Positions 1,605-48,949 of a stretch of 64,000 bases of DNA are shown one piece after another. This DNA is from Phoronis australis (taxonomy: Eukaryota; Animalia; Phoronida): the NCBI GenBank assembly GCA_002633005.1, contig NMRA01000172.1, forward strand, positions 489,303 through 553,302, written 5' to 3'. The notes beneath the pieces were generated by a model that saw only the letters and a list, made by a program, of their open reading frames with translations, made no database searches and was not told the origin of the DNA. The translations under genes were made by a program, and so were the position numbers. Within the stretch, counting starts at the first letter, position 1. Each line of letters starts with the position of its first letter.

Positions 1605-1641
<37 letters not shown>

Positions 1642-6773: not shown

Positions 6774-9700
6774 ATGGCATTGGAGAAGAATCCATTGCTA
6801 TGCAAACATGGAATCTCTTTGATCAGCTGCGGATCGTGTTCAACCAGAGAGAATATGCTTCATTTCTTGAGAAAAGGTGAACAACGTCAGGGTGAAATGA
6901 ACAGTGTACGACTGCTGGACCAAGTTCTTCAAGACTCCTCTCTTTCAGTCATGTGTAAAGATGAACTGGTAAAACTTAGATATTTTTGCTGTCGTGAATT
7001 ACATATGACATAGTGCATACAAACACTCATTTTTGCACAACTCAGGTGCTGACGGCAAAAGTGATGCAACCGAGTGACTTTTAAAACATGAGCCACACCA
7101 CCGATAAGTACGTTTTGAACAACCATAAGCAGCACCAGCAAATCCCCTGTTTAGTCCCATTTTATTGATGAAAACGCAGTACAGGAATACTTAGCCTTCA
7201 TACAGCTAGCTGGTTGGCTAACAGTAAAGTTCCCTTCTGACATGATCATAGATCGCCACCTGCTGCATCACATTGGTGAGCTACAAATAACATAGGTCGA
7301 GAAAATAAAACTTTAGTAACACAGGTGCCAGAGATGCACATTTCCGTTAAATCCAACTGGTTACTGCACTGTACACATACATATATAAGATGAAGGTAGT
7401 CGTCTTTGAACTTCAACAAAAACAATAATGCGCGTCAAAACACAGTCACGATTGTCAAACAAAGCTATTTCTTTCACTTGAATCCGCCTCGACTTTGAAT
7501 TTACACACATTTTCCGAGTTTTATAAGTTTGACTAGTTTTCAGACTACGCTGGTTTGGCTGCCTTCAGTTCTATATAATTCTGTACAGCATACGAAAATT
7601 ACCGAGCGCTCTTTGGACGAAGTCTGTCGAGAAAAATGAGAACACGCAAGACCATGCAAAATCGCGCGAGTGTTTCGCGAGTATACTCACTGGAGTAACC
7701 AAATAAAATGACGGCTACTGAAGTGATTAGTTGGTGAGACTGCAGTGTTGAATTATGGGATAGCATGCATGAATTATTAGATGTAACTCGCTGTTTCAGT
7801 TAAATGAAATTATCTCGCCGCAACTGTATTGTTTTCGTATTGTGTCTCGATGAAGATTTCATCAGAGATAATTACTTCAGTGAGTCGCAATAGCTTCATT
7901 TGACAACTAGGAGTGAGAATTACTTCTCTTTTCACGCGAGCGTGTTTGTTGAAGTTTGAAGATATTTACCTGTATTTCAAATGTAGCGTAGTACTGGTGG
8001 TAGTATAGAAGTGGATCGTTAGGATTTCGATCAAGTGTGGCTTGTTAATAGGACGACATTAAGAACTTGTTGTTTTCGCTGTCGAGAAAATCGAGAGAGA
8101 TATTCATTTCCTTCGCTTTAGAGACCACCCTTGTTGCAACTTGATGTCTCGTGTATACACTAACTGTGTATAAGTTGCTCACCATACAGGTCGCAGATAT
8201 ACGAAAGAAAAATCCTCTATCAGCACCGTTCACCAAGAACACCTTCGCATTCACCTAACGAACTTTGCAGATACATTTATATAGTGTATGTGTCATATGT
8301 TATCTTCGTTGTTACCCGTTGCGGACAGATTTGTAATGCTGCATTTGACAGCCTCCATGCTTACTTCCAGTTCGGGATGCCAGCGCTGTGCCTCGTGTCG
8401 TCTATCGGTCACGAAGAGAGTGTGAAAAAACTACTTCACGCGGGAGCTGACGTCAATTGCGTTGTACCCACGGTACTTTGAATTATACATTTTGAAAACT
8501 CCTAAATCGGCAAGCATGATTATTGCTTTCTGGAAGTTTGACGGATGAGACCAAAGACCACTCACCTCGAACCACAGAATTTCTGTTGTAAGAGAATGAG
8601 AAAGTGATTGGTGCGCAAATTGTACATGTAAATAAAACACAGTGAAATTATAGTGAATCTGCAAAAGTTGTCGTTTATAATGTGCCGCTCAGGTACTGCA
8701 TCTGGAATGTAGTAACTGACAGAACTAGTAATGGTTGAAATCGCCAAAATAAGTTTTGCACCATTCTATAAGCGTGTAGGACGATTCAAGAGTCTGTTTC
8801 ACTATAATGTCGCAACTTTAAGACGTTTTTACACATTATCTAAAAACCAAAATTTATGACTGGCCCTAGTTGCATGAAAATTATTCGCTGGATAGCAGCA
8901 ATGACGTCATTACAACCCGTCTCTTGGGTATTGCTGAACACTGCTTCTGACGTCATGCAGCAATTCAACTTATCCATCATTACTTCTGAAGCTACATGCA
9001 ACCTGAGCCCTGTATCGTTAATTGCCATTTAGACATTTGTTAACGAAACGTCCTAAAGCTTCTAAATTCTATTGAAACATGCATCAGGTCTTCAAGCTGC
9101 TGCCCTCAGAGGCCACTCGTATTATTACGATCTTAATGTCTTGCGTCATAACTTAAAATTAAGGGGGTGCGGATTTTTGAATTTTGATATTTTGTACTTT
9201 GTCTTTGGCCTACAAAATTTGTATTTCACGGAATTAGGTTTGCCGGCACCTCTGGTAACAAAATAAAGTTTACACGGGTCACTAAAAAATCAACTTTTAT
9301 TTAAAGCAACGATTGAAAATTTTTGACAACGGGTTAAATTCCTTGTTTTGTGATACTGTTATTTTTAACGGGCTCACTTATATTCCTAGTTTACCGATAT
9401 TTTGCGTCAGCGAAGGAATAAAAGTATTTTTTCTCGATTCTGACACAAACGACTAAAAAAGGTTTCTAAAGATTACGACTATAAAGGTCGTAAGTTTTTT
9501 AGGTATACGACTCCCAGATCACCAAATGAAAACCCAAGTCACACTTAGCGAGTACATTTACATCTAAGGTGGGATTGATCAGTTGCGGCATTTTTACATT
9601 TTAGGACAAGAACTCTCCGTTGATTTTGGCGACACAGGGAAGGCATATTGAACTTATCAAGCTACTGATTACAGCCGGAGCTAACCTAGCGCATTGCAAC

Positions 9701-12700
9701 AACGTGCGTATGAAGTCATTTCCATGTAGCGGGAGACGTAGAGAATTTCATTGGAGATTGACTAGAGCGTGACTCTCAACCATCTCTTTCATTTTGTTGT
9801 CATCGGCACTCTTAACAGAAGCGTTGACCGCAGATTCAGAATAGTTACTTGACATGCTGTAATATCAAGACAATTGCGAAATATCAAGAAGAGATTAATT
9901 CAAACACTGAAACTATCAAACTCAAGTTATAAACGTTGCGTCCGTATCTCACGGACATCAACTCAGGGGCGAATCCAGAATTTTGAGTTAAGGGGGGGCA
10001 GGACAGAGTATTGGCCAGGATTTTGTCTGCCAGACTTTGGCACCCCCGAACTGCCAAATGGAATCTGGCAGAATTCTAGGTGGGCGATGGCCCCCTTGGC
10101 CCCCCTCTAAATCTGCCACTATGTATTGACCTCCAAATGAAGTTCTGGTGCGGTAGATCAGCGGTGGTTCTGTCCCATCTCAGACCACCATCTTATTGAG
10201 AGCTGGTTTCTCCACGCGTTCATGTAGTGTCCCCTTAACCTCTTCACTAAAACAGTAGTCTCCCCAATCCGAGATAACGACATCCTTGGTTTCAAAATCG
10301 TGTCTTGCTCTGTTGAGATGACTACGTGCAGTCGTATGTGGTCCCATAATTGTGACCATGAATTGCTGACACACAATCACGTTCAAGTACTGTTTCGTAT
10401 CAGCAACATATCTGTCTGAACACTGAGACGCCGTGCGCTACACACCATATACTCCATGAGACTTGATCCCCTTCGGAGCTCAATGCAAGCCCAAATTGTC
10501 GCAACAACCCAAATTGTCACAACTTCGAATTGCGACAATTTGGGTCAGCGCTGCCCATGATGAATTCACCAGTTGGGTTTTTCTTGTAATACAAACTGTT
10601 TAAATGTCCTCTACTCACACCGAAGAACCGAAATAATAACTGTCACCGAGGAGTCCATCAAGAGACCCAAGTCAACTATCTTCAACAGAAAGCATGCCTA
10701 ACAACATTAGAAATACCAAACCTGGAAAACCCCATCTAGAGCCTTTCGTCAAGATATGGAATACCTACCGTTATGAAATTTGTCTTACACTCTTCCTTCT
10801 ATAGTACATGTGATTTCAGTGCCATATACGACAGCGGTATTTAGTCTAAAGCTGGTAATGTAACTAAGGAGCCATAAAGAGAGAGACCATTTCTGTGCTA
10901 CGGTAGCACGGTGCATGATATTTCAACTTCCTCACATATGGGACAGGAACATCGCCGATTATATACAAAATAACTTGATTTTTTGTGAATTTATGTAGAA
11001 CGCAACCCTGTCAAGAACGACTGTAGATAATGAGCACATTAACCTGCGGATGTGCTTCGTTTGTTGAAATTTATGTTACACCCGAGTATCCAAGCAGACG
11101 TGACGCGACTGAGATGAGTGTACATGTAAAAAATGAATCAATTACTGTATTGCATTTATTTCTTCGGTTAAGTAACGTTTCATTGACTGGCGTACGTTAG
11201 CATTTTGTTACTTTCTTGATGTTGTTGAGAAAGTGTGATTTCTCGTTTACAGGAGGGCAACAATGCTTTCATGGTGGCTGTGTCGACTGGAGATGCACAT
11301 CCCGTCAACCTCCTTTGGCAGTATAGGAGTAACTTTAATATTAACCAAGAGAACGTGGTATGGTACAGTGTGCGCTATTAGACTTGTCAAGCGATATGCA
11401 CAAACGAAACCCTTCGTTAACATTGTGCACCTGCTGGTGTATATTATTCAGCAACACTCATGATATTTTATGTCCTAGTAAACATATAGACTTAATTCAC
11501 GCCGACAGGAGGCGCGTTTCAAAACGAGGCTTGCTACGATAGCTCAGTTGACTTATTGGCATAGCTGTATGCTGCGCTGCTTGAACGGCTGTTTTACAAT
11601 TCCTAAGGACGTTGAGATTCGGAAGCGTTGGGTAGTTGACATACGCCGCGACGAAGGAAAATATGTGCGTGTAAAATTTTTAAATGTTTTCGAAAAGTTA
11701 GATCATATTTTAATTGTCGTATCTCGGTTGCCGAGCATCACGACAACGACCGGAGAATTTCCAGCCAGCCAGAAACTACGGATTGAAACATGATGCATTT
11801 TTCTTTCAAAGAAGGACAGGGCTCTCAATCCCTCGATTTTGGGGACAACCATTTCCCTAATTCCCTCTCAAAAATATTGAAAACAATCATGTGAAATTCC
11901 TCCCACGAGGCCTAAAAATTCCCCTAGTGATTGAAAAGTTCTCTCCGGAGTTCAAATCACCTGTAACCATACAGGTGACAATTTGAAAGAGCACAAAATG
12001 CTACTTCAGACAGAGCCTATGAGAGCTTGCAACAGGACGGGGGTGCTATATGGTGATCGGGAGGTAGATTTCCTCCTCACAAGGCGAAAAAGTTCCCCTC
12101 TCAGAAGTCACAGACACTTTTTCATCTCATTTCGATGACCGAGGCCCATGAAGAAACATAATAACCATGCTTGCTCTGTCCAGTTATCTGAAATTGAGTC
12201 ACTAAAACGAGGTTATGCTTTAGATGAACGATTTAGGTGCTTTAATTTTAAAATTCAACTTCGCCCAGATTGATATTTGAAACCTAACACATGAAATAGA
12301 CGTTCATGTAAGAATTATTAAAACCAAGAAAGCAGAATCGATGATCAAATAATTTTTATTTTCAATTACGAGCCTGGTTTTTTGTTTTGATAAAAATATA
12401 TTTAATAACATCAATTATTCTTTCAGGTCAATGACAAATCAACTGTTAGTCCCGGTAGTCCCCACCTCACCAGGCCCTAGGCTGTAGTTGATGTTAATAT
12501 TCTTTATCAACAAATTAAACCAAATGTGTCTAATCGCACATGAAAGCAAAATGCGATGAGCCACCACTGTCGAATAGTCAAATCGTCAACAATACGAGCA
12601 GATGACTTGGTTCGCGTAGAAAGCATTTTTATCAACAAATTTACAAGAAAAAGCTTAACCCTGCATTCAGCATGATACCTAATCCGTAACATTGCGATCA

Positions 12701-15700
12701 CCTCAATTTGGTCATGTTTACTTTTCATGCTTCGAACCTTGTTTTCCGAAAAAACTTATACCCTTTCGTCAGACAATTCTTTGGTACATTGACTTGTTCT
12801 CTATTTTTCTACGTCTCTGCGGTTAATTATCGACACATTTTAAAGATTTAATACCAAGCTTGAACTCGAAAGACCGGCCATTTAACTCACGCAATGTCAA
12901 CTTCTGCTTTGTTTATCGTAGTAAGCCTCGCTTTGGATTTTAATGTCCGCCGAGTGAATTAGGTCTATAGTGTGCCATCATTATCAAGACTACTTTAACG
13001 TTCACAAATGCAGGCCTGGCGTGCGTTCAGTAGCGCTTGGACCTAAGCTAGTACCCAAGCTAAAACCTAGCCAAAGTCACGTGCTTTCATTTGAAATACA
13101 CGGCAATATCTCACGTAATCTCGCGAAGTCTTACTTTTTAGCGAGATTCTAGCGTTACTGGCTATCCAGAGAATACTAGACTCATTTCCGCAATGGTACT
13201 TTTCCTCTCAAATGGCTGGTATTTTTATAGCTTTATGTTCCTCCTATTCACATGTGCGGATTTCAGTCACTGGCAGGTCATTTTCAACCTGGAGAATAAT
13301 TGGTCGTATGACTTTTGTTCGCACATACAAAGAACGTTCACCTCCGAGGGTAATTTGAGGCAAGAGAAATACCCGAATTGTTCCGAATGGCTACAGTATT
13401 TTTTCCATGTCTGGCTCATCCCGAACCTTCTATGGCGTTTTCGTTACTTCAAATTATCGAGGAGACGCTGTGAATTGAGTTCCAGACTCCCCGTTTGGGA
13501 GACCGGGGTTTGAATCCTGGCTTTACTGGCTGACAGTCGAGCATTGCACAGGGGGGTTTCCTAATCCTCTGAGCCCACTCTTACTATTGAATGTATGCAA
13601 GGGAAAGCATGAGAACCTGGATATAATGGCAACGCGATTTTTGGGATTGTGTTAATATTAAATTTATCAAGCCTCGGAAATGTTACATATTTGTGCATGT
13701 GCGAACCAAAACTAGAGAAAAGATTTGGTCAAAATAAAAATCACGCCAAACCACCTAGGTTTGAAAAGAAATGTGCGACGTCATTCTCATTCCGTTGTCC
13801 ACCTGCTGATGTAGTCTAATCTTATTTCACGTTTTGTACTTTTATAACAGAGATGTTTCGGAGCATTTTTTTCATTTTGACAATCGCATGAGTGCTGTCA
13901 CTCTGATTGAAGCTCTCACATGTGGAGATAGGGAATATTACCGTGGGATAATCGGAGGCTACGAAAATACCCGATGTATTCGAGATGGGTCTGGCAAGAT
14001 CAACAAGTCTCATGCACATTACAAGCTAGCTTGGCAGTCAGAAGTGTAGTTCGTCACGGAACTGACCGTTTGGCCCTCTGCGTTTCATCTTTACAGAAAG
14101 GCTATACGGCTATTCATCTGGCAGCTGAGCGACAATGGGAGAGTTGCGTGAACATGCTGATATGTGGTGGAGCTGATAAACAGTGGCAAACATACGTAGG
14201 TACCATCGCCGACCTCACTCTACAATTCATAATATCCACTCAGTTCGAGTAAATATCCAATTTAAGTTGACTAAATACTAGACTCGGAAAAGCATCTACT
14301 TGCAATAAATGATGTAATCCGAGTAGCCGTCCGTAGACCATGTTTTTGCGGGTAAATGAAGACCTGTGAAAAGGCCGCGTTTCGTGAGTATGCTCGGCTG
14401 CTTACTAGCCTATCCTAGCAAAATTTTAGCCACTGATGTGCTTTGTTGGTCAGGTTAAAACGTCGAATTACGGTGTTGAATTCATTAACCGAGGGATATA
14501 ATTCACTGTTTCCCTTCCACGAGCGAAGAGTTTTTGTCGCACGTGCAAACTAACTATTGTGCCTATGGAACTCATCTCCACTGAGCTGCAGTGAAAATGG
14601 TTTCGACTAGAAATAGCTGGTGAAAGGGTTTGAGTTCAGAGAAAAACTTTAAGAGCCAGCCATCCTAGATATTCCCCAGTTCAATGTGTAGAAAAAACAA
14701 CCTTTTCAAGCCTAAACGTTATACCAAAGTGTAACTTCAAAGGGTGATCATCGAACATGAACATCCAATTTGCTATGCCTTTTACATTATTTGGCCCCGC
14801 TACATGAATCAGGGACAGACTTTGACAGAAAACTTGGTGGTACAGTAAAAGCATGCTAATAATTAAGTACAAATACTCTGTCGCATATCCAAATTTTTTT
14901 GTATGAAGATGTACCCGTATCGTTGTAGGACGGATCCACTGCATTAATTATAGCAACCAAAAAAGGTGACAAAAAGACAGTGGAGCGCCTCCTGGCGGCG
15001 TCTGCAAGTGTTGACATAGAGGATAACGTAAGTGTCTTTGTATAACAGAACGTATTTCATCACACATGTACGTGGGTAAACGCACAAACGATGATTTCTT
15101 TTCCAATTATGATAAGATTATGTTGTGTTAATTATTGCAAAAATGTATTTCAGGAGAGTGCAACCGCTCTGTGTTATGCCATAAGAGATAAAAAGTGCGA
15201 CCTTGTCGATTTGTTGATGAAAAAATTATTTTTCTCCAAAGACGACAAGGAAAGTTACGTGAGAGTAAGTGTCGTTGCTTTATTTTTATTTTTCAGTCCG
15301 TTTTAGATTTAATAACATTACACTGTTTTTAGTCAATGTGGAGCGTGTTTGTTCAATAAATTAGTAAACAATAACCTTGCATATTTGACAGAGACGCATT
15401 GACCTCTTGAGGACGAAGACAGTGTCCAACGGCACAATCAGTAAAGAAGATTTCTTCGATTCCATACTTATCCCCGTTATTCAAGAGCTGTGCAAACATC
15501 AAGAATGTCGAGATATCCTGTTTCGGATACGTGCTATGTTCCAGCTGATACCGTTCCTAGACACGTATCTCACCAACGAAGAGGTTGCGCAAAAGACCTT
15601 CATCACCTTATGCATGTTGATGTACGTGTACTCGAGCACGCCCGATTCCAGATTTGTAGACCAGTTTGTCAGTGCCAAAGGACACGAACTAGTCCTAAAA

Positions 15701-18700
15701 AGTCTTTATTTCTACGACGCCAGCAACAGTTACGATCCCAAGATAATTTTCACTGCCTTTATGCCAATCATCAGCATCTATGCTACACTAGAAGGTCGAG
15801 AATGGCTGAAGAAGAATTATTACAAGCTGTCCCAATACTCCACGATTTTCGAAGCCGGGTGTGACATCTCATCCTTTCTGGACTGTTGCCGCGGTAAATT
15901 CATGGGAACATGGCAGAGATTTAAGTGGCACTTCACCAAAACTTCGCAAGAACAGGCTGAGCTTGTCTGTGCAGAGTTATTAGAGAATGAAGAAAGGGAA
16001 AAGGCAAGGGAGCGCGCGAAAAAAGAAAAACGGCGGGAAAAGAGAAAGAATCGAAAAATTCAACAACGTGCAGAGCGTGAATATGCTGAAAAACTTGTAG
16101 ACGGAGATGATTCATTGTTCGATGACGTCAACAATTCTCCCGATTCTCAAAATTGTAGTTACACGCCGAAAGGAAGCGTCATAGCAGACTTTCTCAGTGG
16201 CGTTCAGCAGAAAGTGAAAGGTCTGCTAGGGAAAATACCAGCGTCTCCACCGCGTGATCAGAGGGAGAATGTAGACGACATACAGAAGGTTCAAGAACAG
16301 CATGCAAAGAAGAAACGAAGGAAGAAGAACAAACCGAAGAGAAGCGAAGAGGATGAAGTTTTGTTGAACCACTGTGCAATAAATCCTGTATTCGACAGGA
16401 TACAGTATTCGCCAAAGGTGATAAAGTCACGTACAACTAAAGTACCAAACCTTCCCCGAGTAGAAGACATTATAGAGCCTTGTGAAAATGTTAGTGGTGA
16501 TGCGCCTGAGGTACTAGGGGCTATGGCTACGCCGGAGAGGGTTGGTATCAATTGTAGCAAATTGAGCTTGCCTTGCCTTGTGGCCGGACCAGAACATAAG
16601 GTCACGAAAGATTTACTTGAATGTAATCTCACAAACAGCGGTCTTGTGCCGTTAGACACGTCGTCACCAGTGAAGTCGTACGAACAATATGGTTCAGTAA
16701 ATATGAACGAAAACGCAAGAGGATACCGTAGCCAGGCTCCTCCCAGAGTTAACATATCGCTAGATGACGTAACGGAAGATAGTATGGCTGGACTGTCGCC
16801 CATAGGAACACCCAGGGAGGTAGACACAAACGGCAGTCTAACCAGCAGCTCTATAACTCCTGAGAAGTACGGCATGAGTCCTCGACCAAAACATGGCAAA
16901 CATATCGTTCGTTTTAAGGAAATGAAATGCGATGGTCCACCATCTTCCTACGCGTTTTGTGCAGTAGGCGAGTCTCGTGTGGGCAGTATGTCACCCAGAG
17001 GTCGAACAGCTACTTGGGCAGAAATAACGAAGAAAGATGCTGTCAAAACTAGACCATGGAGTGCAACAAATATTAGGTATGGCTCACATGCTTCAAAACT
17101 TTCACAACCTGTATTCTTCCAACCAAACGACAATTTTCCTAGATCAAAGAAGTCAAAAAGACCGCCGCGATTAAGGCCTTCCCAAGACACGAAGTTAGAC
17201 ATTATTTCTCCTACGAAAGACAGTCGAATCGTTAAGTCAACAAATGCCGTCGAAGGAAAACCAGCCATTCAAAAAGTGAACCTGCGTGACATGAAGATAC
17301 CACTTTCTAGTTTCATACCAGATCTTTCGAGACTTAACAATGAGACAGGTGCAGGTGCTGTTGAAGATCGAGCTACAGAAACTGACAACGAACGAAGAAA
17401 AGATCGAGAGAATAAGTCATACGAACAGCAACGTGAAAAGTCGGTAGAAGTGAGTTGCTATCGCATGAAACGAGATGCGCAGAATACTACAATCGAACAT
17501 GTAGTCGACGTTGACGCAATGGCAGAGGACCCAGACTATGTCCGCATGCAGATGGAGGCACTGGATAACTTCAGCAAAGATTATAAAAACCTTAACTTCG
17601 TTCAAGATGTTAGCGGCTGGCTGTCGGAAACGTCTGACGGTGACGTCAGCAGCGAGAATGGTGTAGAGAAGAAAGAAGGCAGCGTTTCTTCAGACGCAGA
17701 CATGGAAGTTCAACGGATACTTCAGGAAGACGTCATCGTGCACGAAAATAACCCCATTATCTCACCAGTGACTAAGAGTTACCATAATAAATGCACTGCT
17801 CCTCCCGTTTGCTTCTATGATTTTGGCATAAAGACATCTCACGAATTTTACGAGTCGGTTACCGGTGACAGAAAGCTTTTCCGCGACACAAATCTTCTCA
17901 CTGACATTCGGGTGGAAAACATTCCTGTGGCACCAGACGTGGAATTTGCTCGGTTGACACCAGATCCTGATGATGGGTTTTCCAATTTGGATAACACGGA
18001 GTACATATACTATCCCGGAATGGATCACAAAATGCTGCAGATTAGAGGACTCTTCCAGAATACGGCCAACAATCGCTTTCACAAACTGATACAAATGCAG
18101 TTTGAAGCTGCTAACGAGCGCAAAGTTATTGGCGAGATGTCATCGATGGGCAGGTTCTACCAGTCGCGCTTCAGTCCTAAACAATTTGTTCCACCTCCTG
18201 CGGGAAGTCTTTGGTCCAACTGTGGTAATCGGCAGGTGGCAGTAGGTGTCCCAGCGAGCAACGCAGTGGATTGTCGCGACAATGACTCGTCCATAACGTG
18301 GGTTCCTAAAAGTCAGCGTTGGAGATCAATCTTCAAGGAGTTGACGGCTCTGTCGATTGAAACACACACTAAAGTTGGTCCCATATTGTTTCACGCCCAC
18401 AATCAACGCTTCGGTCTAACCAGCAGGTATCGCCAGTAAGAATGATTACCTTATCTAGATTTGAAAGTACCACGAACCTGATATGAGTTGAGTTTCGTAG
18501 ACGTAAGAATCTTGCGAAGAAAGCAAGTGTAATCACGTGCTTTGCTTGTGGTACGTGACAAAATCTCACGATGTTTTGCACGATATATTGCGTTTTCACG
18601 AGGTTCTTGTGACTACGGAACGCACGCTTAACCTATGTCAAACACTGCTTTTTGATTTACACCACTTACCATTGTATAATTGCCCCTTACTCAAAGTAAA

Positions 18701-21700
18701 AATGAATTGTAGTTCGCCATTACTCAAGTCCAACTTAAAAAAGCATAGTTTGCACCCCATTTTACCATAGAGGTCTCTGCTAACAGTCTAAGCGTGTGCA
18801 TTACCGTAACAGTACCACGGAGCTTTCGTTGAGATCTCAGTCGTAGACAACCCTAAGTCATTCAGATCAACCAAATATGTATTGAGCGAATGGCGGAGAT
18901 CGGAAACAAGCAAGGAACTGCGTCACTAATTACCCAATGAGTGATCGTAAACTCCGAGTGCTTTTAACAGACCCAAAGAAGAATTACCTCAGAGAGCTCA
19001 GTAACAATAAAATAAATTAAAGTTGAACTTGTAGGTTTGTTCCTTTTCTGTGGTTGCTTGCCAAAGTAGTTAGAAGCACATCTTGTAGCGACGATGTGAA
19101 TATGAAGAAGGCTGGAAATTATCGAATGTTTATAAAAACGGGTTATGTGGCGAAATTGATCCACTGAAACTAATTGAAGCGTGTCCAGTTAATATTTCAC
19201 GTGGTGCTGGGGATTAACACTGCGCACATAGCCCACGAGGTACGTCATTGATGCAAAAGGTCACCTGTTTTCATATTTTTGTTTCATTTCACATTTACAA
19301 ATTGTCAGTGAATACAACTGCACTTTCTTTAGAGTAGATTATGTTAAAATAGCATTGTCGTTTAGTTCTTGTTATGCATTAGCACAGTTAGGAGCATGCA
19401 AATACATCTTTAAATATAATTTGCGCTCTTACCGAAAGAGGCCTCGGGAGATTATCGAGAATAGAGTTTAATACGGTGTCTTGACCTTGAGAGTCATTTA
19501 TGAGCCGAGCACGAATTGAAACGAGCTATCAATTCTTGCCGAGCCCTACATGTACAATCGCTTCCAACCTAAGTATGGGACGAATGAGACCGTTGCATAA
19601 CCGAAAAAGGTGTTGATCATCAATTATTTGGTAGCTTTTGACAGTAGCTAAGTGTGTTCGTGGAAGCTCAAATAATACGAATCTTCAGTTACTGTTGAAT
19701 CCGTCCGTTTTCACATACACTTTGAATGCTTAACATCTCATTATTTCTCTACTTTTCATCTGAAGCAATCACCGTGTTCTCGTCGGATGAGTCATGTTAA
19801 AAGCTTGTTATCTGTTGCTCTGACTGATATTTTTCATGTCAGCCAAATTATGTCTTTCGAAATTCTTGTCTTTCCAGCAACCATTCCTCAGCTTCCTCTT
19901 ATCTCGGTATATTGGAGGACGGTACAGAAATCTCAGTGCGGCGCATGAGTCTGGATGACTACGCTCATTTAAAGAAAAACTTACCTACCATGCTCTATCC
20001 AGCAGTCAGACACGAGTCGTTGGCCAAGTTTCTGGTATATATATTTACTCTTGATGCTGTTCCAGAAGTTAAACACTGTAGTTTTTTGTGGACCTAGATT
20101 CAGACTATGGCTAAAAGTACATGAGAACACGAAATATCAACAATCGACTAATGTGTCCAGGAAAAGGCTCAAAAACCTTTTTACTTTGCGAATAACATTT
20201 TTAAAGTGAAGCACCTTTCCGAAACGATAAAATGTAGGCCAAAACAGCATAGTTAGTTATGGTCTTGTGTTTTCTTTGTTAAAAAATTGCACAAAAGCAC
20301 GCCAGCAAGAGTAAGCAAGGCTTGAAACACCACGGTTTGCCAAGCGAGTAAAAGCAAATCATTTTGGTAGTCTAGGGTGGCTTTTCTTTTCTGAAAAATG
20401 AAGCAACAAAAGAAAAACCGACATACGGACTCAATTTTCAAAAACTAAATACGGGTCAGAGCCTACTGTGTTGTTGGCCTTATTACTACTATATCTGTTA
20501 TTTTTGCTCGAGAACGTCTCATTGATCGAAATGCTCTATGTGTCATTTCGATGTTTCAGAGTTTGAGACACCCACCCTTGCCTTAATTACATGAACAATT
20601 AATGTTTTAGTTTACAATTGGCAGAAGCAATGTTGGTCGAATAATAGTGGCACGGCAGATAATTACAAAAATCACAAGAATCATTCACGTTGTCATGCAA
20701 CCAACAAAATTGGTCTGTGATTCCACAAAAATGGTGCACCTGGTCCAGCCATGCAGCTCAAGCACACCCGGTGTACTGCAAAAGACACTAGGCCACCTTA
20801 CTGCCTACTTTGCTCTAAATGCACATTCAAAATATAGGCCATTTCCGGTAGCAATCTGGCGTGTTCTTACACAGTTTGGTTGATACAAAAGTACATTAAT
20901 TTTGTATGCATAATCCTCAATTCTAAGTGTCACACAATATTCTGCACCTTGATAGCATGTTTTTCAAATTTTACAAAAGGCATTTAGATACTGAGGACAG
21001 TAGTGCACAATGAAGCTTGAGTGTTTCTGACTACATCTGGCACCATTAATTGAGTAAAATGGACTGCTGTGTTCAAGCTCCGCCGGTATCATAAAAGCGG
21101 CTGAAGATATCAATGAATTACACGACTGTTATGTAACTGCTGTGCTAGCTTCAGGGAAGGTGCTGCTACTTTGGGACATGCAAAGAAATGGGAGATGTCT
21201 CTCAGTCAGAATCTATATTGTGATGTCGGTGTTTGGAAAGACCATAAGAAGGAAGCTGCATGAGAATGGGTTAGGCAGAGCAAGCACTGCTATTTTATAA
21301 CGGCCAAGCACACAGCAGGAGTTGCTCAGAGGTCTGTCCACCACTGCCAGCATGGGCGATTAGATCGAATTCCAACTTCTACGGCGACTACTATAACATC
21401 TTTCCTAGGAACAAGCATTCCTTTGTTCCGACACCCTGGTCAGTAGAATGAGGACATGAACAATGCCAGTTGACAGGCAACAACACGAAGACAGTTCAAA
21501 GCGTCCCGCCTCTTTTACGAATGTCAGACCTGTACACTTCTATGAAGAAAGTCCACTTGCGCTTCAACTCCTGAACTTTTCCTGGTTTAAAATATTTCCA
21601 ACAAATGTGCACATATACACAAGTATTGAAAACGCCACACTTACAAGTAAGCCTGGACGTCTGTAATTTTTCAGCATGCAACAGAAGACGATCATTATGG

Positions 21701-24700
21701 ATACCTGGCTATCGAACTGTGTGAATACAATCTCGAAGAGTACATACAACACATGAGGTCGCGTAACGAGTACGATTTCCGGATTGCGAAGCGACTGGTG
21801 TGGCAGTTCTTGAAAGCTTTACAGTACTTGCATGAAACTTGCCTCGTAGCTCAAAGAAATTTAAAGGTAAGCATGTCAAGAAGGCCAGGACAGCCACTCT
21901 GCACGATTTTATTTGAAACCACTATGGCGTTTACAAGCCTCATAAGCAAGTGTTTTCTTACGTGAGCTGTATGTTGTTTGCTTCAATATGCTTACTTATT
22001 AAGTTAATATTGGACTGCACTATCTAGCCTCAGAACATACTACTCGACACTCTGAACAAGGTGCGACTGACCGACTACAACATTAGCCGCATGACGGAGA
22101 GCGGGCAGACGATTCTTTACGACAAGGGTGTGGGTGAGTCTATCTTAGATATTACACGAAGAAATAGTTTGAATTATTGGAACTAAATCAAGACTCGGTT
22201 GTTAATTATTGTCAAAGCCTTGAAGGATTCTTGGCCTTGATACTCCTTAATAATTGTAGAGAATGTCGTGCACGAATCGGCTTCCAGTCCTCATAGCTTT
22301 TGAAACAAAATATAGGCGTCAGAAAATTTTTGTCAGAAATCGCGAATGCTGAAAAGTGTGCTATCATTAACAAAAATTTTGCACTCAGATAAATTTGATT
22401 GACCACAAATAACTGTCAAACAATTTTTACAATATAATTTTGACCTTTTCCGGCAAGTACAAATACTATTCAAACTCATGACGCGTTCAGATGTCAAGTT
22501 TAAAAAAAGATCGATACGTCGTCTGACCATAAAGCCGATCAGATGCTCACAATTACAGTTCAGAAATGTCTCGTATGCGGCGAGTAATTAGCGTAACATC
22601 ATGTACAAAATGGCAATTACTTGAGCGCCACCATGGTTGAACAGAAACTAGCCGCTAATCTGGTCAAAGGGATGTACGGCTCTCACGGTAAGGCAGTAAA
22701 TCAGGTTGGACGATTAGAAGGCAGCTCAGCCATCTGACGCGTTCACATGTGATTTTTTTCAGACGACAGATAAATCTCTGATACGGTTTGTTGCATGCTG
22801 CTGCCTGACCGGACGGCATGTGAAAGCCTTGTACGTGTACGTAGATGACCAGTACAAACATAAATAAAAACCTTTGATTCGTTTGATCTCAAGTTGGTTG
22901 CAGTTGACCTGTTGAACGCGATCTCATTCACAAAACTCATCGATTTCATGACAGGCTGTAATTGCTGGCGACCAAAAGAGTGCGTGACAAGTGGCCAAGC
23001 TTGGACGGGGACGGCATCCGTAGTAAACTACACGACAAAGTCAGATATCCAGGTAACGGACTTAACTCATGAAAGTAAATCAGACATACATGTAAAGAGC
23101 TTACATACATGTACAACTCGAGAACAACTCTACGTCGAGAAACAACCAAAAATTAATACGATGTTATATCAGGCACTGATACATTCCCCATTAAATCCAC
23201 GAGAAAGGGAAAATAAGTGGTTCCAACAAAACCAGGCAGTTGTGCTTTACTAACCTGGGATGATGTTTGACGGAGTGATGCCCGTGAACGCAAATAATTC
23301 AATTTGGAATGAAATAAGTACCCTCCATTACTGCGATAAGACGCCGCATGGCAGATATATAGTTAAAAAATCAACTCGGACTCGTGAAGACAGAAAGGGT
23401 ACTTTACTCATAGATTGATCAAAGTAGGTTTTTGGATTTACACTATACGGTTTGAATTCGTGAAATACCCATCCACGCCAGGTTGCCGGAATGCTTGTGC
23501 ACTACATTTTGACGGGAGGAGTGCACCCATACGGTGACAACACGTTCGACATAGAGCTGAACATTGCGCGTGGTTGGCCACGATGGCGAAGAATAAATGA
23601 AGAGGCCAACGACCTCATACGGTGGATGTTGTCAAATGAAGAGAAAGAGCGACCCAACATCACACAGACTTTAAGGTACTCATGCATCTATGAAAAACTG
23701 TACATGTAAATAAACATACATCTAGTTTTTTTCGACCATAACTTGTTTTTGTGAAAAAGAGCAATTTAGAAATTAGAGGACCATCTTTTGATCGATAGTG
23801 TACAGCTGCCTTACTTGACGTCATCGAGATTAGCTTTGGTTAAACTCATTAACTACTGCTTACAATTTGAGTTGTAATTCATTGAACAAAGCAATCAATT
23901 ACAATCTGTTACTGGCCTTTGCAGACACCCTTTTTTCTGGCCAGAGCTCAAACGAATGGACTTCTTACATACAGTGGGAAAAGAAATCCTGAGCGAATTT
24001 CAGTACGGGTAGGTAACTTGTCCAATGCATCTGGAATATTAATTGAATTAATTAGACCTTCGGTAGTACGAAACTCAGACGAAAGTTATGGCATTTTGAT
24101 TTTCTCGTACCTGATTTTATTCATAGAGTATGTCCGTTCAGGTGGCAAAATGGTTCACCAAACTTACAGACGTTCAAACCGCAGACGGCTCTGACTAAAG
24201 CACTCTTCAAATTATTGTCGGGCCAGTAAAAATAGACCTTTGCCGGAAGATCTAGATTTAATAGAAAAACACGCGTGTAACTAATTGTTGAAAGACGTTT
24301 GGCATACAAAGCATTCAAAAATCTGTCACGGCTCTTTGCAAAGAAGAGAATATTTATGATCGAAATATGTTGAGAATATATACACAAAACGTGCCGAGAG
24401 TAGCGTACATGAAATAATATCCCACGAGACATTATTCCCCGTATCGACCTCGACTTTCGGTCTCGGTTCGTACGCGGAATAAGGCCGAGTGGGATATTAC
24501 TTCTTGAACGCCAATCGAGGTACGTTTTGTATTTATCCCATGCGCTTCGAATTCCTAAGTTTCTTACATTTTTTTCGGCAGATTTTTCAAATACTTCACC
24601 CAGCCTGTTCAAATGGCGGATCACATCCTAATATGTATGTACTTGCGCGTTAGGCTGCAAGTTTTCTCTGGTAAAAGAAACAGTTTTAAATGTAACGATT

Positions 24701-27700
24701 TATTTCTTGAAAAGAGGTAAGAAAGATGAAAACAACGGCAACTTTGCAGTGAATGTGTAACATCTCTTGGAGCTGGTTAAAAAACAAAATTTGATATTTT
24801 AGTTTCCTAGGAATCGGCGACTGAGTTGCAGACGATATAATATTCAGCAATTGAAAACTGAGACATAAGTGTCTCATAATTAACAGTTTTGTTCCAGATT
24901 TTACGTTTAGGGCCTGGTTGCATGTCGAGTGTTATTTACACTGTTGCAACTGTATTACTTTAAACTATGTTCGGAAAGTTTGAGGATCGAACCGGCTGAA
25001 GACGTCGAGTCGACATTGACCTACCTTTTGAACTTTCCATGTCAGAGGTCACTGTTGAAGTGGTGTGGGAGGTGAATACGGAAAACTTTATTACATGGCC
25101 GTATTTCCCTCGACAGATTCAACGCGTATGGGATAAATCTCTGTATTTTGACGATTAGTCCGAACTTGTCTTTTAGCCCCGCTACTAACAGCGTCATCAG
25201 TGAGAGGCTGAACAATGTCTCCTTCCAGGCGGTGAGCAGAGACTGGGTGAGTTGAGTGAGAGGGTCTTGGGAACATGGGTGTCGGCTGAGTTTGTGTAGT
25301 GTTTAGTTTTGACCTAAGTGGGAATTGATGCGTGAGTCTATGTTGCCAGTTACTAGCTTATCAAGTTATATGCAAAGACGTGGAGGAACCCAACGACTAT
25401 GTCCAACAGCTTTGGGTACAGTATTTTCATCACTCATAAGGGAGAGTTGAAATATTGAAAAAGGGGCGGGTTCGTCCTGCTTTTAGTGTTTACACTGACA
25501 GAGTTAAAAAAACATTTTCTAATAACTTTCATACTCTAGATGTCGCAAATCGACGAACTGTTGCTGGAAGAGATGCGCACGCACCGTAACTACAAAAACA
25601 ACGTGGCCGATTTCCTGCGATTCATTGTCAACTGCCAGACACAATACAAAAACCTGTAAGTCGTTCGCCTCCATTACACGCAGTTATTTGCTAATTGATT
25701 CGTATGCTTTTTTGTACGTCATTTGTCATCTAATTCATTTTTGTATATAAATCAACGTCAGGAGTACTTTGTACCCCTATATAGTTGTCAACATTGAGTT
25801 CTGGAAGTAAAAAATTGCCACGCTCATCTGATCTTGAATTATTGCCGAATAAGCCGGTTTAATTTATTGTACTATTTAGAATAAGGGTGGACCCCTTTCC
25901 TCAACAACAGAATAATGAACTAATGTAGTCAAACAATAATTAAATACAGGTAACAAAGCAACAATCAAACAGGTTAAGAATTTAGATAAAAAATGACGAA
26001 GGATTATGAAAATAGACTAAGGGACGTTAAGTTAAATAAAGAAACGATGCTATTAATAGTGAAAGTATTTACGGTATTGAAAAATGGCATACTTAAGACA
26101 GAAATAGGTGTAAAAATGGGCAAATAAATTGCAGTCTCTTTTTAATATTAAATTTGAAAGCATTAATTCAATCGGACCGTTTAATTTCTGGGCGAAGGGA
26201 ATTCCATATTGCAGCACTGGCATTAAATATAAGATCTCTTGCCGGTCTCGGTTTTAATCATTTTAAATGAAACATTACCAGCAACGGATAAACGTGTAGA
26301 GTTTACAGCTTGACTGCTACTAAATTTGCGTCTGAGATATCTGTTTATGCCACAGGCAGAGAATTTTTTTTTTATTTTCATCAATCTAAGCTTGGAGCAC
26401 AAGTCGTCGACCCAGGTGCCCCTAATTCTAGTACCCATGATAGCCCTGGTGGCTCTATTTTGGATTACCTGGAATTTTGCTTACAAGTGTGTCGCTGGTG
26501 TGTCCCCAAACCGGTAAACAATAATATGGGGCTGAATAATAGAATGGTAGAGTATCTTAAGACTGCTGAGATAAAGAAATTTACCTCGTGGACGTTTTAA
26601 AGTACGCCGATTTTCTTTGACATTTTATTTGTGATGTAATCTATGTGCATAGGTTGGGATCTAAAATAAGGCCCTAGCACTGAAACTTGTCGACACTCTC
26701 AATATGGAACCGTTGATATAAAGACACAATTTCTGTCGTTTAAATTACTAGTGGGTTCCCAACTGCATAGCCTTGGTGCCACAAAGGTTAAGAATAAGTC
26801 TATTTTGAACCAGCCAGTCATGGATAAGGGCAAGCTCATCGTTGAGAGAAGTTTTAAGTTCATTATTGATCCAGCTGTGGACATAATTACAGTGTCATCG
26901 CTGTTGTGGAGGACAGGGGAGATCGTAAACAAAAATAGTGAATAATTGTGTTCCCAGAATGGAACCCTCGAGGAGGTACGCCTTGATAACTGTTGAGTAG
27001 TCGGAGAGAATATCACCGTATTTGGTAGCGTGTTTGCAGTCGTATACGTAGTTTTTAAACCAAAGGAGTTCGTTATCGTTAACTCCATTGGACTGTAGTT
27101 TCCTTAAAAGGATACCATGGTCCACAGTGTCAAAGGCTTTCTTAAGGTCAACAAAACAGCACCTGTAAGCCTCCCCTGGTCCATATTATGGAAGATAAAG
27201 TCAGTAGCGTAAATTTTTGTAGTCAGTGTAGAATGCAGGGAGTGGAAACCGGACTGGTGTCGATAGAAGGGAATTTTCCTCCACGAATTAGTAAACTTGC
27301 TTTTGGACACACCTTTCAAGAATTTTTGGACGTTGCTTGGAAGACCGATATTGGCCATTATTTTTGCAACTGGACTTGTCAGTTGTCACCGTCTTCAAAA
27401 ACAGGAGTAAAGATCGCCATCTTCCAATCACTGTGGCCGTGTCTAAACTCAAATTTATGAAGGGTCTCGGCTATTAGCTGAGAGACCAGTTTCAGTACAG
27501 TTTGGCATAAATGCTTATCGGTGTCACCGGTAACTCACGTCACAGACAATTTGTTCATGTGCCATCTTTAAATCTGCAATTTAGGGTTGGCCAACCCACT
27601 TTAACTATGTTCAAAGCGCTTTCTTGGGTGGCTGATAGTTTCGTTGTTTTGTTGTTACCGGAACTAGAATCTTATTGTGTTAGGGAATATCATGAGAATG

Positions 27701-28095
27701 GACTAAATCGATTTTCATTTTTAGCCAGCTAAATAGCCAAACGTAGTTATAGAAGTGTATGCGGAACAGTGGAACCTCGTAGTTCAGAAAAAATAGAGTT
27801 TTAACTTTGAAATGTGTGTGTGGGTATCCTACATTGCCTGATGACTAACACCTGCCAGAATATTCTCGACCTCGCCACCTAGTATCCCTTGCTCGACGTC
27901 TCATCTTCTGGCAGACGAAAGACAGGAGAAACTTTCCACCTTAGTATATTTTTCAGATCCCCCACGAGTAAATCTATACTCGGCGAAGATCGGCTGTATT
28001 TCCTGCGGAGTTTTCCCGCGCTTTTCATGTCAGTCTACCGCGTCGTCAAGGGAAGTGAGTGGGCAATGAAAATGAGCTTCAGCAAGTTTTTCTAA
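6774..28095 (+). CDS. RNase L/IRE1-like multidomain protein (ankyrin repeats, helical/coiled-coil/disordered insert, pseudokinase, KEN domain), ~1636 aa, 16 coding exons
   Basis: Phase-consistent GT-AG exons: 6774-6968, 8371-8472, 11253-11357, 14097-14195, 14929-15027, 15154-15264, 15392-18435 (alternative donor 18426), 19878-20034, 21675-21866, 22028-22133, 22955-23052, 23482-23675, 23925-24008, 25177-25246, 25540-25655, 27957-28095; total 4911 nt, ending TAA. Five phase-0 ankyrin exons (e.g. KGYTAIHLAAERQWESCVNMLICGGAD). Pre-kinase motif WVPKSQRW (cf. RNase L WKPQSSHW). Kinase motifs YLGILEDGTEISVRR, LAIELCEYNLEEYI, QRNLKPQNILL, KSDIQVAGMLVHYILTGGVHPYG, HPFFW. KEN motifs YKNNVADFLRFIVN and YFLRSFPALFMSVY. 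The first exon is the least certain. Confidence 0.88.
8371..15264 (+). CDS. Ankyrin-repeat exons (five repeats, one per exon) of the RNase L-like gene
   Basis: Phase-0 exons of 99-111 nt: FGMPALCLVSSIGHEESVKKLLHAGADVN, EGNNAFMVAVSTGDAHPVNLLWQY, KGYTAIHLAAERQWESCVNMLICGGAD, DGSTALIIATKKGDKKTVERLLAASASVD, ESATALCYAIRDKKCDLVDLLM. Confidence 0.9.
9964..10120. mobile_element. Short non-autonomous element with GC-rich imperfect TIRs
   Basis: caggggcgaatccaga ... ctaaatctgccact with G and C runs. A similar right end (tagatctgccactg) occurs near 35017-35030. Confidence 0.5.
10130..10400 (-). mobile_element. Penelope-like element, C-terminal fragment of the GIY-YIG endonuclease
   Basis: SHLNRARHDFETKDVVISDWGDYCFSEEVKGTLHERVEKPALNK resembles the PLE endonuclease tail (HL..H.F...DV.ILD.E..WF.RGVKEAI.....KP.LN). 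Confidence 0.6.
11548..11670 (+). mobile_element. Degenerate THAP zinc-finger fragment, DNA-transposon derived
   Basis: SCMLRCLNG.CFTIPKDVEIRKRWVVDIRRDEG matches the THAP pattern C..C...F.FP.D...R..W...IRR. No intact transposase follows. Confidence 0.55.
13016..13160. mobile_element. MITE-like element, same family as 33724-33867 in opposite orientation
   Basis: Reverse-complement similarity over ~145 bp, including ggcaatatctcacgtaatctc. Confidence 0.7.
15392..18435 (+). CDS. Giant 3.0-kb internal exon of the RNase L-like gene
   Basis: Matches the 1010-aa ORF at 15407-18439. Acceptor ttgacag ends at 15391; donor gtaaga starts at 18436. In frame with the flanking ankyrin and kinase exons. Confidence 0.88.
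19878..24008 (+). CDS. Pseudokinase-domain exons (RNase L/IRE1 family)
   Basis: Kinase subdomains are recognisable in order across six exons. VAVK reads ISVR, HRD reads QRN, DFG reads DYN, APE reads PKE; the domain ends RHPFFW. Confidence 0.88.
25177..28095 (+). CDS. KEN (kinase-extension nuclease) domain exons
   Basis: Spliced sequence SERLNNVSFQAVSRDW|MSQIDELLLEEMRTHRNYKNNVADFLRFIVNCQTQYKNL|SPTSKSILGEDRLYFLRSFPALFMSVYRVVKGSEW aligns by eye to the RNase L/IRE1 RNase domain. Confidence 0.85.
26100..27510 (-). mobile_element. Decayed LINE RT fragment (CR1/L2-like) in the last intron of the RNase L-like gene
   Basis: Minus-strand DLKKAFDTVDHGILLRKL, HQSGF, a degenerate GVP..GSILG and SDDT (from YADDT); many frameshifts. 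Confidence 0.85.
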
Positions 28096-28523
28096 GCACC
28101 ACGCCAGCTATAGATGTTCGCAAAGTCACCAACAGATATAGCTAAGAAGGCACGGGCAGTGAACGTCTGAAATGATCCAGATAACACGTTACAGGAAGCC
28201 TAAACACAGGCGGTACGTTGCCCAGAGAGTGGAGTGTACTTCACACCATCCTCACCAACAGAGGACAGCACATTCAAGCACATCTGTGATATTTTATTTC
28301 AGAGCTATTGCATTTTTGCTATTGTATACACACGTGTATTTACAATTCGTTTAGCGATTATAGAAGAAACGTTAAAACACTCTCGTTTTCTCTGATCACT
28401 TACTATCATTTCAATAATACAGTATAGGATATCCTCCGGCTGATCTGTAGATAGGCGAACACTTTTCTTCTCTGGCAGCATGTTTCATCTGCACTATTGT
28501 GATCGCAGAAAAGGTAACTAGTT

Positions 28524-29686
28524 TTAATCAGTTTGCTTTTCACAGATGTATCCCATGCCAATCGAACAGTCACGCTGTATCCATGCGCCAGTCGTCGCGT
28601 TGAGCGCTACGCAGACATACTGTTGGCCTTCACTTCTGTTCGCGCCCCGAAGTTCTGAAGCATCTGAAACATATTATCTCACCATTGAAAATCCGCAAGT
28701 CATTTTAAAGAAAATCGAGAGTTCATTTTATATAAGAATCGTGGTGTTTTCCAACCCACAAATCTAGTAACAGGTACAAGTTTAGTAATTGCAACAATCT
28801 CGCCAGTTTGATACCGTTGAAGTTAATTGCGTTTCTCGATAGAGTTTCAAGTTTAAACTGATCTCAAAATTGCATGATGTTATTTCATGAAAGGGGTAAA
28901 AATGAAACGTCTAATCTGCCAATTTGACTTTCTTGCTACCGAAATAAAACACCGGTTATGATTTTGTTTCATCCAAGTTAACAAGATAATCTTCTTTACT
29001 ACTAATTTGTAGAAGTTGCCGTTACCGTTTGCCCAGTTAGTGAAGATAACGTCATCACCAGTGTTGTCCCATTTAAATTGACTACTGCTGCTTGTTTTGC
29101 TTGCTCCAATCCACAAGCTCGCCACCTTCAGGCTTTCTTCGGCATTACTGACCATCGCCTTTAGAGTGGCCTTCAAATATCTTTGCTCTTTTCCATTGTT
29201 GATGTTAACCAAGTATCCCCCTGATTTCATACAATAAATTGATGCCAGTGACCTGTCCGAGACTGAATCAACAATCATGTAACACGACCCGGAAAAGAGG
29301 GTGTACCCCCAAGAACAGGTTGGTGCCGGTGTTGTGGGTATGACTGCTTGTAGCGAGTTGGCCGCTACCTGACACACGCGTCTGGTTTGATGACAGCACT
29401 TCTTGTTCCTTGCCATGCTCAAAGACACCCTTCTCTTTATCGTCTCCAAGCTGTCGCGAACGTAGCTGTGAAATGCATTGAGGTCGCGTTCCATATTCTG
29501 TAGTCGTGCGTCAATTTTGGACAGAGCCAGTGCATTCCTTTCGTTTAGATCTCTTGCTTCTGAGTCTGTCGGCCTAGCCACTGAGTCAGCTTCAGTAATA
29601 GGAATTACCTCTGATTTTACTCCGTCATAAAGGAACACAAACACGATCCAGAAGGACGACATTCTACCCGCGTTGAACAGTTTCAT
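28524..29686 (-). CDS. Secreted coiled-coil + C-type lectin domain protein, paralogue 1 (~266 aa)
   Basis: Exons 29026-29686 and 28524-28663. Hydrophobic signal peptide and heptad neck (LSKIDARLQNMERDL). CTLD motifs CSWGYTLFSGSCY, YCMKSGGYLVNI, LWIGA, FKWD, FTNW, CVAL...WIQRDCSIGMGYICEK. Confidence 0.9.
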
Positions 29687-32964: not shown

Positions 32965-33723
32965 AGTGCACTGGAAAGCTAGCAAGCGCTTCGTTTGACT
33001 GTGCCTTGGCTATGTGTGAGCTTAAAAAGCTGCCAAACGGTTATCTCCCCGAGCTCGGTTAGCTCCGCAATACATGTTGGTCACTAACAACATTTTGTCA
33101 AGACATAAACGCTTAGCATTAAAGTAAACAATTCCTAGTTTTCTTACGTTGTTTATCCTTGTCTTTCAAACCTCCTCGATTGTTATGAAACACATCTGAT
33201 GACGCAAATGTAGACCACCTGCTGTGAATGGCGTGCCGCACAGATTGGGATAGCAGAGGTATTTTTGGTGTGGAAAAGTAAGCAATTTTCTTTGATGCCA
33301 CAATGATCCGTGGGTATCCCGGCACCTAGGAAATGGCCACGTCCTGACAGGTTCGCCCTGGTGGGTGTCAGTGGCCAGGGGAGCCAGGAGAATGGCACTC
33401 AAAATTCGAGTTAGATCAACTTTTCTGGTAACCACTTAAAAATCCCAGCGACACCTACTACATGTAGGTCTACTCAGTTCACTGTATGATCCACAGCCAG
33501 ATAATTTCAATGGTGGGGAATTGAACATCAGCCAGCAGCCGGACGGACGGTTTTAACCGTTTGGCCAAAAGTTGAGCTAAATCAACCCAAGAGGTAGCCA
33601 CCTGAAACTGGTTACAAATTATTCAACATAGACCAATGTATTATGAACGGACACCCAGACAAGTTCAGTGGTGGATTACCCTTCGCCAGGCACGCCCGAA
33701 TCTCCGGTTCGGAAACCGGCCTC

Positions 33724-36644: not shown

Positions 36645-48949
<12,305 letters not shown>

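Follow-up and report, generated by a model that had tools for sequence, protein, structure and literature searches.

The described systems closest to the gene examined here are RNase L and IRE1, in both of which a kinase domain is followed by a KEN ribonuclease domain. RNase L carries nine ankyrin repeats (PMC4730318), a degenerate kinase, and the KEN, in that order and with no membrane segment, and IRE1 has a luminal sensor and a transmembrane helix ahead of its kinase and KEN. An active KEN RNase has an Rx4-6H motif with Arg, Asn, and His, together with a catalytic Tyr and Asn (Y892 and N906 in IRE1, the residue numbering being that of PMC6399222), and KENs are treated as almost always active, the motif being “mostly conserved (95%)” in the account of Anantharaman et al. 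(2013; PMC3710099). According to published accounts, invertebrates have OAS and lack RNase L (PMC6307210, PMC9334734): oyster and Lottia were scored as lacking it (Hu et al. 2018; PMC6307210), none was reported from Aplysia (PMC9334734), and a Nematostella “RNase L” homolog receives a passing mention (PMC8476169). Here, we describe a gene from the phoronid Phoronis australis, contained in a stretch of 64,000 nucleotides (contig NMRA01000172.1 of assembly GCA_002633005.1, positions 489,303 to 553,302 of the forward strand; hereafter the window, numbered from its first letter), whose predicted protein has the domain order of RNase L, a kinase without its canonical catalytic residues, and a KEN without the catalytic Arg and His. 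We favor, with moderate confidence, the view that this gene encodes an ancient double pseudoenzyme, likely a non-cutting cytosolic scaffold, in which the KEN fold has been kept as a dimer or RNA-contact surface.

The helix-loop element of the KEN and its degenerate Rx4H motif lie in a single exon of 116 nucleotides (25540..25655, +), flanked by AG and GT, whose translation is MSQIDELLLEEMRTHRNYKNNVADFLRFIVNCQTQYKN plus two bases of the following codon. An initial annotation of this DNA, made from its letters alone and resting on the peptide encoded by 25591-25647, had called a KEN domain in which the catalytic Arg is Val and the His is Gln, with Tyr, Asn, and scaffold residues retained. A gap-free alignment to mollusc orthologs, and of those to solved IRE1 chains, fixes the register of the motif and bears these substitutions out. 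Val-Asn-Cys (25627..25635, +) stands at IRE1 Arg905-Asn906-Lys907, with Val (25627-25629) in place of R905, Asn (25630-25632) kept at N906, and a Cys that is a signature of the family; Gln, encoded by CAA (25642..25644, +), occupies the His910 position; and the Tyr at 25591..25593 (+) matches Tyr892. The window thus reads V-N-C-Q-T-Q where an Rx4-6H motif would be expected, and the catalytic Tyr and Asn are both present. Neither equivalent of RNase L R667 and H672 is kept, and the annotation was right that both are needed in that enzyme, in which R667A and H672A are reported as nuclease-dead (PMC4217177, PMC10400998). The window keeps, on the RNA-facing surface, basic and aromatic residues (equivalents of R887, R890, Y892, R902, and N906). 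At the position of IRE1 Phe889, a residue that lines the pocket, the alignment places a His (25582..25584, +) that the annotation had overlooked and that is a candidate for compensating the lost one.

Assignment of this region to the KEN family draws on two exons. Against the Pfam profile Ribonuc_2-5A (PF06479), the 38 amino acids of exon 25540..25655 alone cover profile positions 41-77 (E 6e-4, 20.4 bits), falling below the 23.3 cut-off because the piece is so short, and the last coding exon covers positions 96-126 (E 6e-4), likewise below the cut-off when taken alone. These are consecutive parts of the profile, encoded directly after the kinase, and the cut-off is passed by the orthologs P0001 (49.7 bits) and P0037 (60.7 bits). 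A search of the PDB with the 38-amino-acid exon alone gave chance matches only (MLA10).

The codon CAA is one base away from a His codon, and the RNA reads were therefore inspected for polymorphism. In two stranded RNA runs, X5 and X6, mean depth over the bin 25585-25689 is 80 and 91, respectively, and no variant was found in the three KEN exons among the best 40 of 77 variant rows, which include rows with 4-5 reads. An assembly error or a His/Gln polymorphism at CAA was ruled out on the ground that the reads show no variant row there. One DNA contig (X1 record 1) also spans the KEN exon, with a single listed difference, intronic at 25518; X1 may be the assembly's own sample. Position 25540 was considered as a start codon and rejected, being a phase-0 acceptor.

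The annotation's claim of an intact reading frame goes beyond what the exon by itself can show, but is borne out for the assembled allele: the gene is spliced, and the 16 exons found amount to 1,600 codons with a single terminal stop. From the N terminus the protein comprises six ankyrin repeats, a helical domain, a charged segment, a low-conservation linker of ~700 amino acids, the kinase, and the KEN, and no transmembrane segment was found in its 1,600 amino acids (highest 19-residue hydropathy 1.29). The helical domain, encoded in 15392..18426, is family-specific, with armadillo-like as a lead only (Atlas leads < 0.9). The kinase, whose degeneration the annotation had also missed, aligns as a pseudokinase at every catalytic element considered, with Arg for the beta-3 Lys, QRN for HRD, and DYN for DFG. 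Without the HRD Asp, no phosphotransfer is expected. An AlphaFold model of the Solemya ortholog (predicted local distance difference test, pLDDT, 86.7) has template modeling (TM) scores of 0.67-0.76 to IRE1 and 0.70 to RNase L, and in this model of the Solemya ortholog the IRE1/RNase L kinase-KEN fold is kept.

Relatives of the gene were collected in several searches. The 3-kb exon (15392..18426) found a single homolog, an oyster protein; the kinase-KEN part of that oyster homolog matched 29 mollusc-type proteins and one fish protein; and a profile run against 1.84 billion representatives had 940 matches at 1e-30, from the best 150 of which the family rows were drawn. No close ortholog of the window gene was found in these searches (one match among 7,990 candidates, one match among 4 candidates, and the best 150 of 940). 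Members of this architecture that carry a species name are spread over bivalves, gastropods, octopus, Owenia, scorpions, and five insect orders, and include Ostrea edulis LOC125669248, Owenia CAH1796528, Centruroides LOC111641703, and Zophobas LOC135136562. The architecture was confirmed in Owenia, a scorpion, a beetle, a sawfly, and octopus, and colinear ankyrin, helical, kinase, and KEN domains are common to the window, mollusc, and annelid members. Databases annotate some members of this family as IRE1 or RNase L enzymes, a practice against which the residues described below advise caution.

The window and the family form one clade in a FastTree analysis of all columns in 118 rows (support 0.98), made after removal of 43 rows that were short or had no KEN and of 9 redundant molluscs. 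With the motif columns removed, a quick IQ-TREE run (LG+G4, 50 chosen rows) recovered the same clade with a Shimodaira-Hasegawa-like approximate likelihood ratio (SH-aLRT) support of 94, just under the starred level. In the kinase-KEN tree the window falls outside the mollusc-annelid-arthropod group with weak support (85), and its ankyrin region is nearest to that of the annelid Owenia (53%) among the 15 compared.

Residues at the motif were counted across 170 rows, 42 of which have no residue at the Arg column, and three hemichordate rows were set apart. Arg and His are found together in register in none of the 31 mollusc-type rows (26 of them named as molluscs, some being redundant isoforms or congeners) and in none of the 15 other family rows, the window included, compared with 71 of the 79 other IRE1-type rows. 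The kinase shows a parallel pattern, the HRD Asp being kept in 1/46 family rows vs 77/79 other IRE1-type rows; the pseudokinase signature of the family is of the HG[N]LKPxN type, and a Cys stands at the Lys907 position of the KEN in most rows. Mollusc-type rows read Y-N-C-C-x-H, with the Arg lost and the His kept in all 31. Among the other 15, seven retain the Arg only, one the His only, and seven neither: most insects keep Arg or Lys and not His, and the window, Owenia, the scorpion, and P0044 have lost both, with different residues in each. The row P0044 is ambiguous, because a gapped phmmer alignment puts a His on H910 and the ungapped profile alignment does not. Taken together, the alignments indicate that the family as a whole has lost the canonical site, apparently long ago, each lineage having drifted to other residues. 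The annotation had raised the possibility that orthologs share the Val/Gln pair, and on this point it was not upheld: the motif is degenerate family-wide, but differently so in each lineage, and Val/Gln itself is not conserved.

Two further observations emerged from the same rows. The near-invariant Cys-Cys-x-His cluster of the molluscs (P0001-P0033) could, as a matter of speculation, be a metal or redox site. The hemichordate rows (P0052, P0069, and P0105) form a second, separate clade in which the kinase is intact and the KEN motif is degenerate (Arg and His together in register in 0/3), possibly an independent loss of KEN catalysis judging by these residues; P0069 also has an N-terminal GT4-conflict glycosyltransferase domain.

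How the window protein stands relative to the described systems can now be set out. It resembles RNase L in having ankyrin repeats, a degenerate kinase, and a KEN in the same order without a membrane segment, in a phmmer match over the kinase and KEN, and in the TM score of 0.70 noted above for the Solemya ortholog model. However, it has neither the catalytic Arg nor the His, carries six ankyrin repeats against nine, inserts the helical domain and the ~700-amino-acid linker between the ankyrins and the kinase, and is a member of a protostome family, RNase L having been reported as absent from protostomes (PMC10400998, PMC6307210). Among the rows of our trees that could be named, none was RNase L (clade B in Chu et al.), and these sequences do not show the window protein to be RNase L; at most, it would act as RNase L does apart from catalysis. 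IRE1 supplies the top sequence and fold matches in the PDB (the latter again for the Solemya ortholog model), and the helix-loop element and the Tyr892 and Asn906 equivalents of IRE1 are kept. The window protein is nonetheless not an IRE1: it has an ankyrin N terminus, no luminal sensor or transmembrane helix was found in its 1,600 amino acids, its kinase is without the Lys, the HRD Asp, and DFG, its KEN is without Arg905 and His910, and it falls in a separate clade.

Proteins of this general shape have been encountered before. Chu et al. (2023; PMC10400998) report several ANK-bearing proteins outside the RNase L clade, in which ANK was probably gained independently, and the window family may be among these ANK-PK-RNase proteins, a comparison made by text only; the accessible text of that paper names no invertebrate clade, and catalytic residues are not examined there for the ANK proteins other than RNase L. 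Pseudo-HEPN domains are already a known idea, motif-less HEPN domains such as those of Swt1 and MtlR having been proposed to bind RNA without cutting it (PMC3710099), and the window KEN is like them in being a HEPN fold without Rx4-6H. It differs from them in that the accessible text of PMC3710099 names no inactive KEN family, whereas the window family is a kinase-fused clade with family-wide degeneration. We found no description of the family or of its catalytic loss in the literature searched, in which subscription journals were thinly covered, and a protostome family of RNase L-shaped double pseudoenzymes is apparently undescribed.

In the scaffold that we favor, the conserved ankyrin repeats and helical domain would act as the input, binding a partner or ligand; the pseudokinase-KEN unit would provide a dimer platform of the IRE1/RNase L type; and the basic, aromatic surface of the KEN could serve to hold RNA, or a partner protein, with no cutting involved. 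RNA binding, dimerization, and ligands are inferred for the window protein. A KEN that lacks both Arg and His is not expected to cleave RNA in the known way. In yeast Ire1, the change His1061Asn is reported to cost a factor of 3e5 or more in rate, and the scissile phosphate is proposed to be held by Arg1056 (PMC3149027), so that the annotation's prediction of a non-cleaving KEN draws support, by analogy, from the cost of the His-to-Asn change alone. Precedents are the motif-less HEPN domains noted above and nuclease-dead RNase L, which keeps a scaffold function with filamin A (PMC4217177).

The annotation had also offered the roles of decoy and dominant-negative partner of an active paralog. 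Such a protein, acting as a decoy or as one half of a heterodimer, would tune an active KEN enzyme, whether IRE1 itself or an IRE1-like RNase that is soluble. This would fit with the fact that Lingula, amphioxus, and teleosts have soluble relatives whose motif is intact, and with reports that IRE1-type enzymes act as dimers and that mixed dimers form in vitro (PMC3149027). However, there is no second KEN gene within the 64-kb window, and the divergence between the family and the active clades is large, so a shared dimer interface seems less likely. Further, a His-dead Ire1 protomer is described as activating about tenfold in trans before it inhibits at excess (PMC3149027), and a dominant-negative effect is thus not the default outcome. 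We found no evidence for such an effect here, and consider a partner of this kind very unlikely.

Whether the KEN has been maintained or is decaying is a separate question, and much of the evidence on it concerns rates. Window-to-mollusc identity is 29-37% for the KEN, 28-36% for the kinase, and 11-16% for the linker. On a fixed tree, the ratio of KEN to kinase terminal branch length is 0.82 for the window, 0.33-1.11 for molluscs, and 0.76-1.75 for five IRE1-type rows; there is no accelerated protein evolution of the KEN on the window branch. Within molluscs the KEN is the better conserved domain (57% identical vs 39% for the kinase), and in the RNA reads the 325 nucleotides of the KEN exons have no variant row vs three in ~200 nucleotides of untranslated region (UTR), among the 40 rows listed. 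These values are relevant to an alternative in which the KEN is a vestige in this lineage, a structural cap or a domain being lost, with the ankyrin, helical, and pseudokinase parts doing the work. The window KEN branch, no longer than the kinase branch, the KEN's similarity to molluscs, equal to that of the kinase, and its exons, without a coding variant row, all speak against it.

Several observations, however, count against a non-cutting but maintained KEN, and some of them favor decay. The most direct is a frameshift upstream of the KEN, not noticed in the annotation: a T6 run (23931..23936, +) appears with one additional T in 50/146 junction reads of X5 and 37/113 of X6, about one-third in both runs, and the shifted frame would stop at 25186-25188, removing the KEN. 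The additional T is inferred from seven letters, as compared with the window's six, in an alternative form of the joint, and is seen in RNA only; no compensating indel was seen among the junction rows listed. In other lineages the KEN evolves fast. Ratios of KEN to kinase branch length are raised in six insects (1.2-4.1), Owenia (1.56), the scorpion (1.40), and P0044 (1.81), the last being the nearest row; the KEN is 34% identical within insects vs 44% for the kinase; and no Pfam KEN match was obtained in the octopus protein or in two insects tested. The ratio itself exceeds 2 in two active-type fish rows and is for this reason a blunt measure. The residues at the Arg and His positions, moreover, differ in every lineage.

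X5 and X6 may represent one individual or pool, because the same UTR variants occur in both. The frequency of the shifted form (~33%) does not match that of the UTR variants (near 50%), for which possible reasons are a pool of individuals, biased counting, or decay of transcripts carrying the shift. Single loss-of-function alleles are common in highly polymorphic marine invertebrates, which we also count against vestigiality. On balance we hold a vestigial KEN to be fairly unlikely, while recognizing that, if it is correct, the finding shrinks to ordinary domain decay.

The other points that weigh against a non-cutting KEN concern the residues themselves. The His at the Phe889 position might rescue catalysis in the window protein; molluscs keep Tyr, Asn, and His in 31/31 rows, and the family may for that reason not be uniformly dead; and one insect row reads Arg-x6-His and another Lys-x4-His. 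A further alternative is a rewired RNase, in which the His at the Phe889 position would replace His910 and work with the retained equivalents of Tyr892, Asn906, and Arg902, and in which molluscs, having kept the original His, would have changed only the Arg, to Tyr. In IRE1, F889 is described as lining the same pocket as H910, Y892, and K907 (PMC6399222). His is found there in no other family row of lophotrochozoan type (30 of the 31 mollusc-type rows have Phe) and was gained where His910 was lost; the window keeps an Arg at 902, a position filled by Leu or Val in molluscs; and the Y-N-C-C-x-H of molluscs is strongly conserved. However, 5 of the 79 rows whose motif is intact also have His at the Phe889 position, which makes it an aromatic variant of an ordinary kind, the Arg that binds the phosphate is gone regardless, and Owenia, the scorpion, and P0044 have neither His. 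A rewired site is thus distinctly unlikely in our estimation, and we retain the non-cutting scaffold as the preferred reading.

A bolder version of the scaffold would make the family the protostomes' ancient and hitherto unrecognized counterpart of RNase L: a receptor with an ankyrin sensor, pseudokinase, and KEN that lost canonical cleavage before the split of molluscs, annelids, and arthropods, that signals or sequesters RNA on ligand-induced dimerization, and that is possibly the missing partner of OAS-type second messengers in invertebrates. Molluscs, and this organism by means of its relocated His, may in this proposal retain a non-canonical active site. We regard the proposal as unlikely when taken whole. 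Independent of it, the family is a concrete candidate for non-catalytic KEN function, and it provides a natural series for asking which residues a KEN needs, with the His kept in molluscs, the Arg in insects, and neither here.

The gene model combines two kinds of evidence. Stranded RNA reads of X5 and X6 show the joints from 18426 to 27957, ten in succession, and the six 5′ exons (8371 to 15264) rest on homology and GT-AG ends. The gene has at least 1,600 codons; neither its true first exon nor its start codon was located, and 8371..8472 is the 5′-most coding exon found. Expression was seen in two of three raw-read runs (X5 and X6). The third, X7, has no exon reads across 13756-28400 and covers repeats there as X5 and X6 do, which, in this uncontrolled comparison, may reflect tissue- or stage-specific expression.

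All exons lie on the + strand. The ankyrin repeats are encoded by six exons. The first (8371..8472; Pfam Ank E 6e-5) was located by tblastn with mollusc and Owenia orthologs and has AG/GT ends, its 3′ end having been picked from four in-frame donors and supported by no read joint. The second (9605..9703; tblastn, Ank E 1.5e-5) has predicted ends. The third (11253..11354; tblastn) gives no Pfam match at E 0.01 when taken alone and is the best-conserved stretch of the gene, with 72% identity to Owenia P0037 over 43 amino acids. The fourth (14097..14195; Ank E 7.6e-6) lies in a bin of low stranded RNA depth, the fifth (14929..15027) has an Ank E of 3.9e-6, and the sixth (15154..15264; AG/GT ends, tblastn) encodes a degenerate repeat. 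They are followed by the 3-kb exon (15392..18426), an open reading frame with homolog P0001 and read joints, which encodes the helical domain, the charged coiled-coil segment, the linker, and the start of the kinase N-lobe. The joint 18426>19878 is carried by 67 and 66 reads (X5 and X6), and an alternative joint, 18435>19878, by 19 and 18 (19/86 and 18/84); this in-frame donor at 18435 adds three codons (18427-18435) near the kinase glycine-loop region.

Read joints also define the kinase exons: 19878..20034, with the beta-3 Lys changed to Arg (ISVRR, by alignment); 21675..21866, with the catalytic loop QRNLK in place of HRDLK and no catalytic Asp (alignment; Pfam Pkinase E 9e-5); 22028..22133, with DYN in place of DFG (alignment); 22955..23052, the activation segment; and 23482..23675, the C-lobe (Pkinase E 9e-5). 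The exon 23925..24008 encodes the kinase-KEN boundary (HPFFW) and the first KEN helix, and is joined by 23675>23925 and 24008>25177. A KEN exon follows at 25177..25246 (joints 24008>25177, 120/96 reads, and 25246>25540, 100/92 reads in X5/X6). Two candidate exons in this interval, 24582-24634 and 24898-24923, were ruled out, being skipped by the reads and lying inside a repeat, and the real exon is 25177-25246. After exon 25540..25655, the joint 25655>27957 (83/100 reads) leads to the last coding exon (27957..28095), which encodes the C-terminal KEN helices and the stop, and the 3′ UTR (28096..28300) carries variants at 28154, 28198, and 28246, each at ~50% in both RNA runs.

Several other features lie in the window. 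Two tandem two-exon C-type lectin genes on the - strand (28528-29731 and 31890-33009; Pfam Lectin_C) converge on the 3′ end of the gene, and some + strand first-mate depth is present in the last RNA bin. At ~390-3000 (-) lie exons resembling ankyrin repeats, a block present in two copies (680-850 and 1340-1490), and weak kinase-like matches (393-509 and 1059-1175); this may be a second ankyrin gene that extends past the edge of the window. A VPS35 gene has exons at ~43232-47696 (+; Pfam Vps35). Decayed reverse-transcriptase fragments of the long interspersed nuclear element (LINE) type occupy 26200-27460 (-), inside the last intron of the gene, and 60757-62764 (+), as judged from their translation, very high contig depth, and a Pfam RVT_1 match at 61639-61962.

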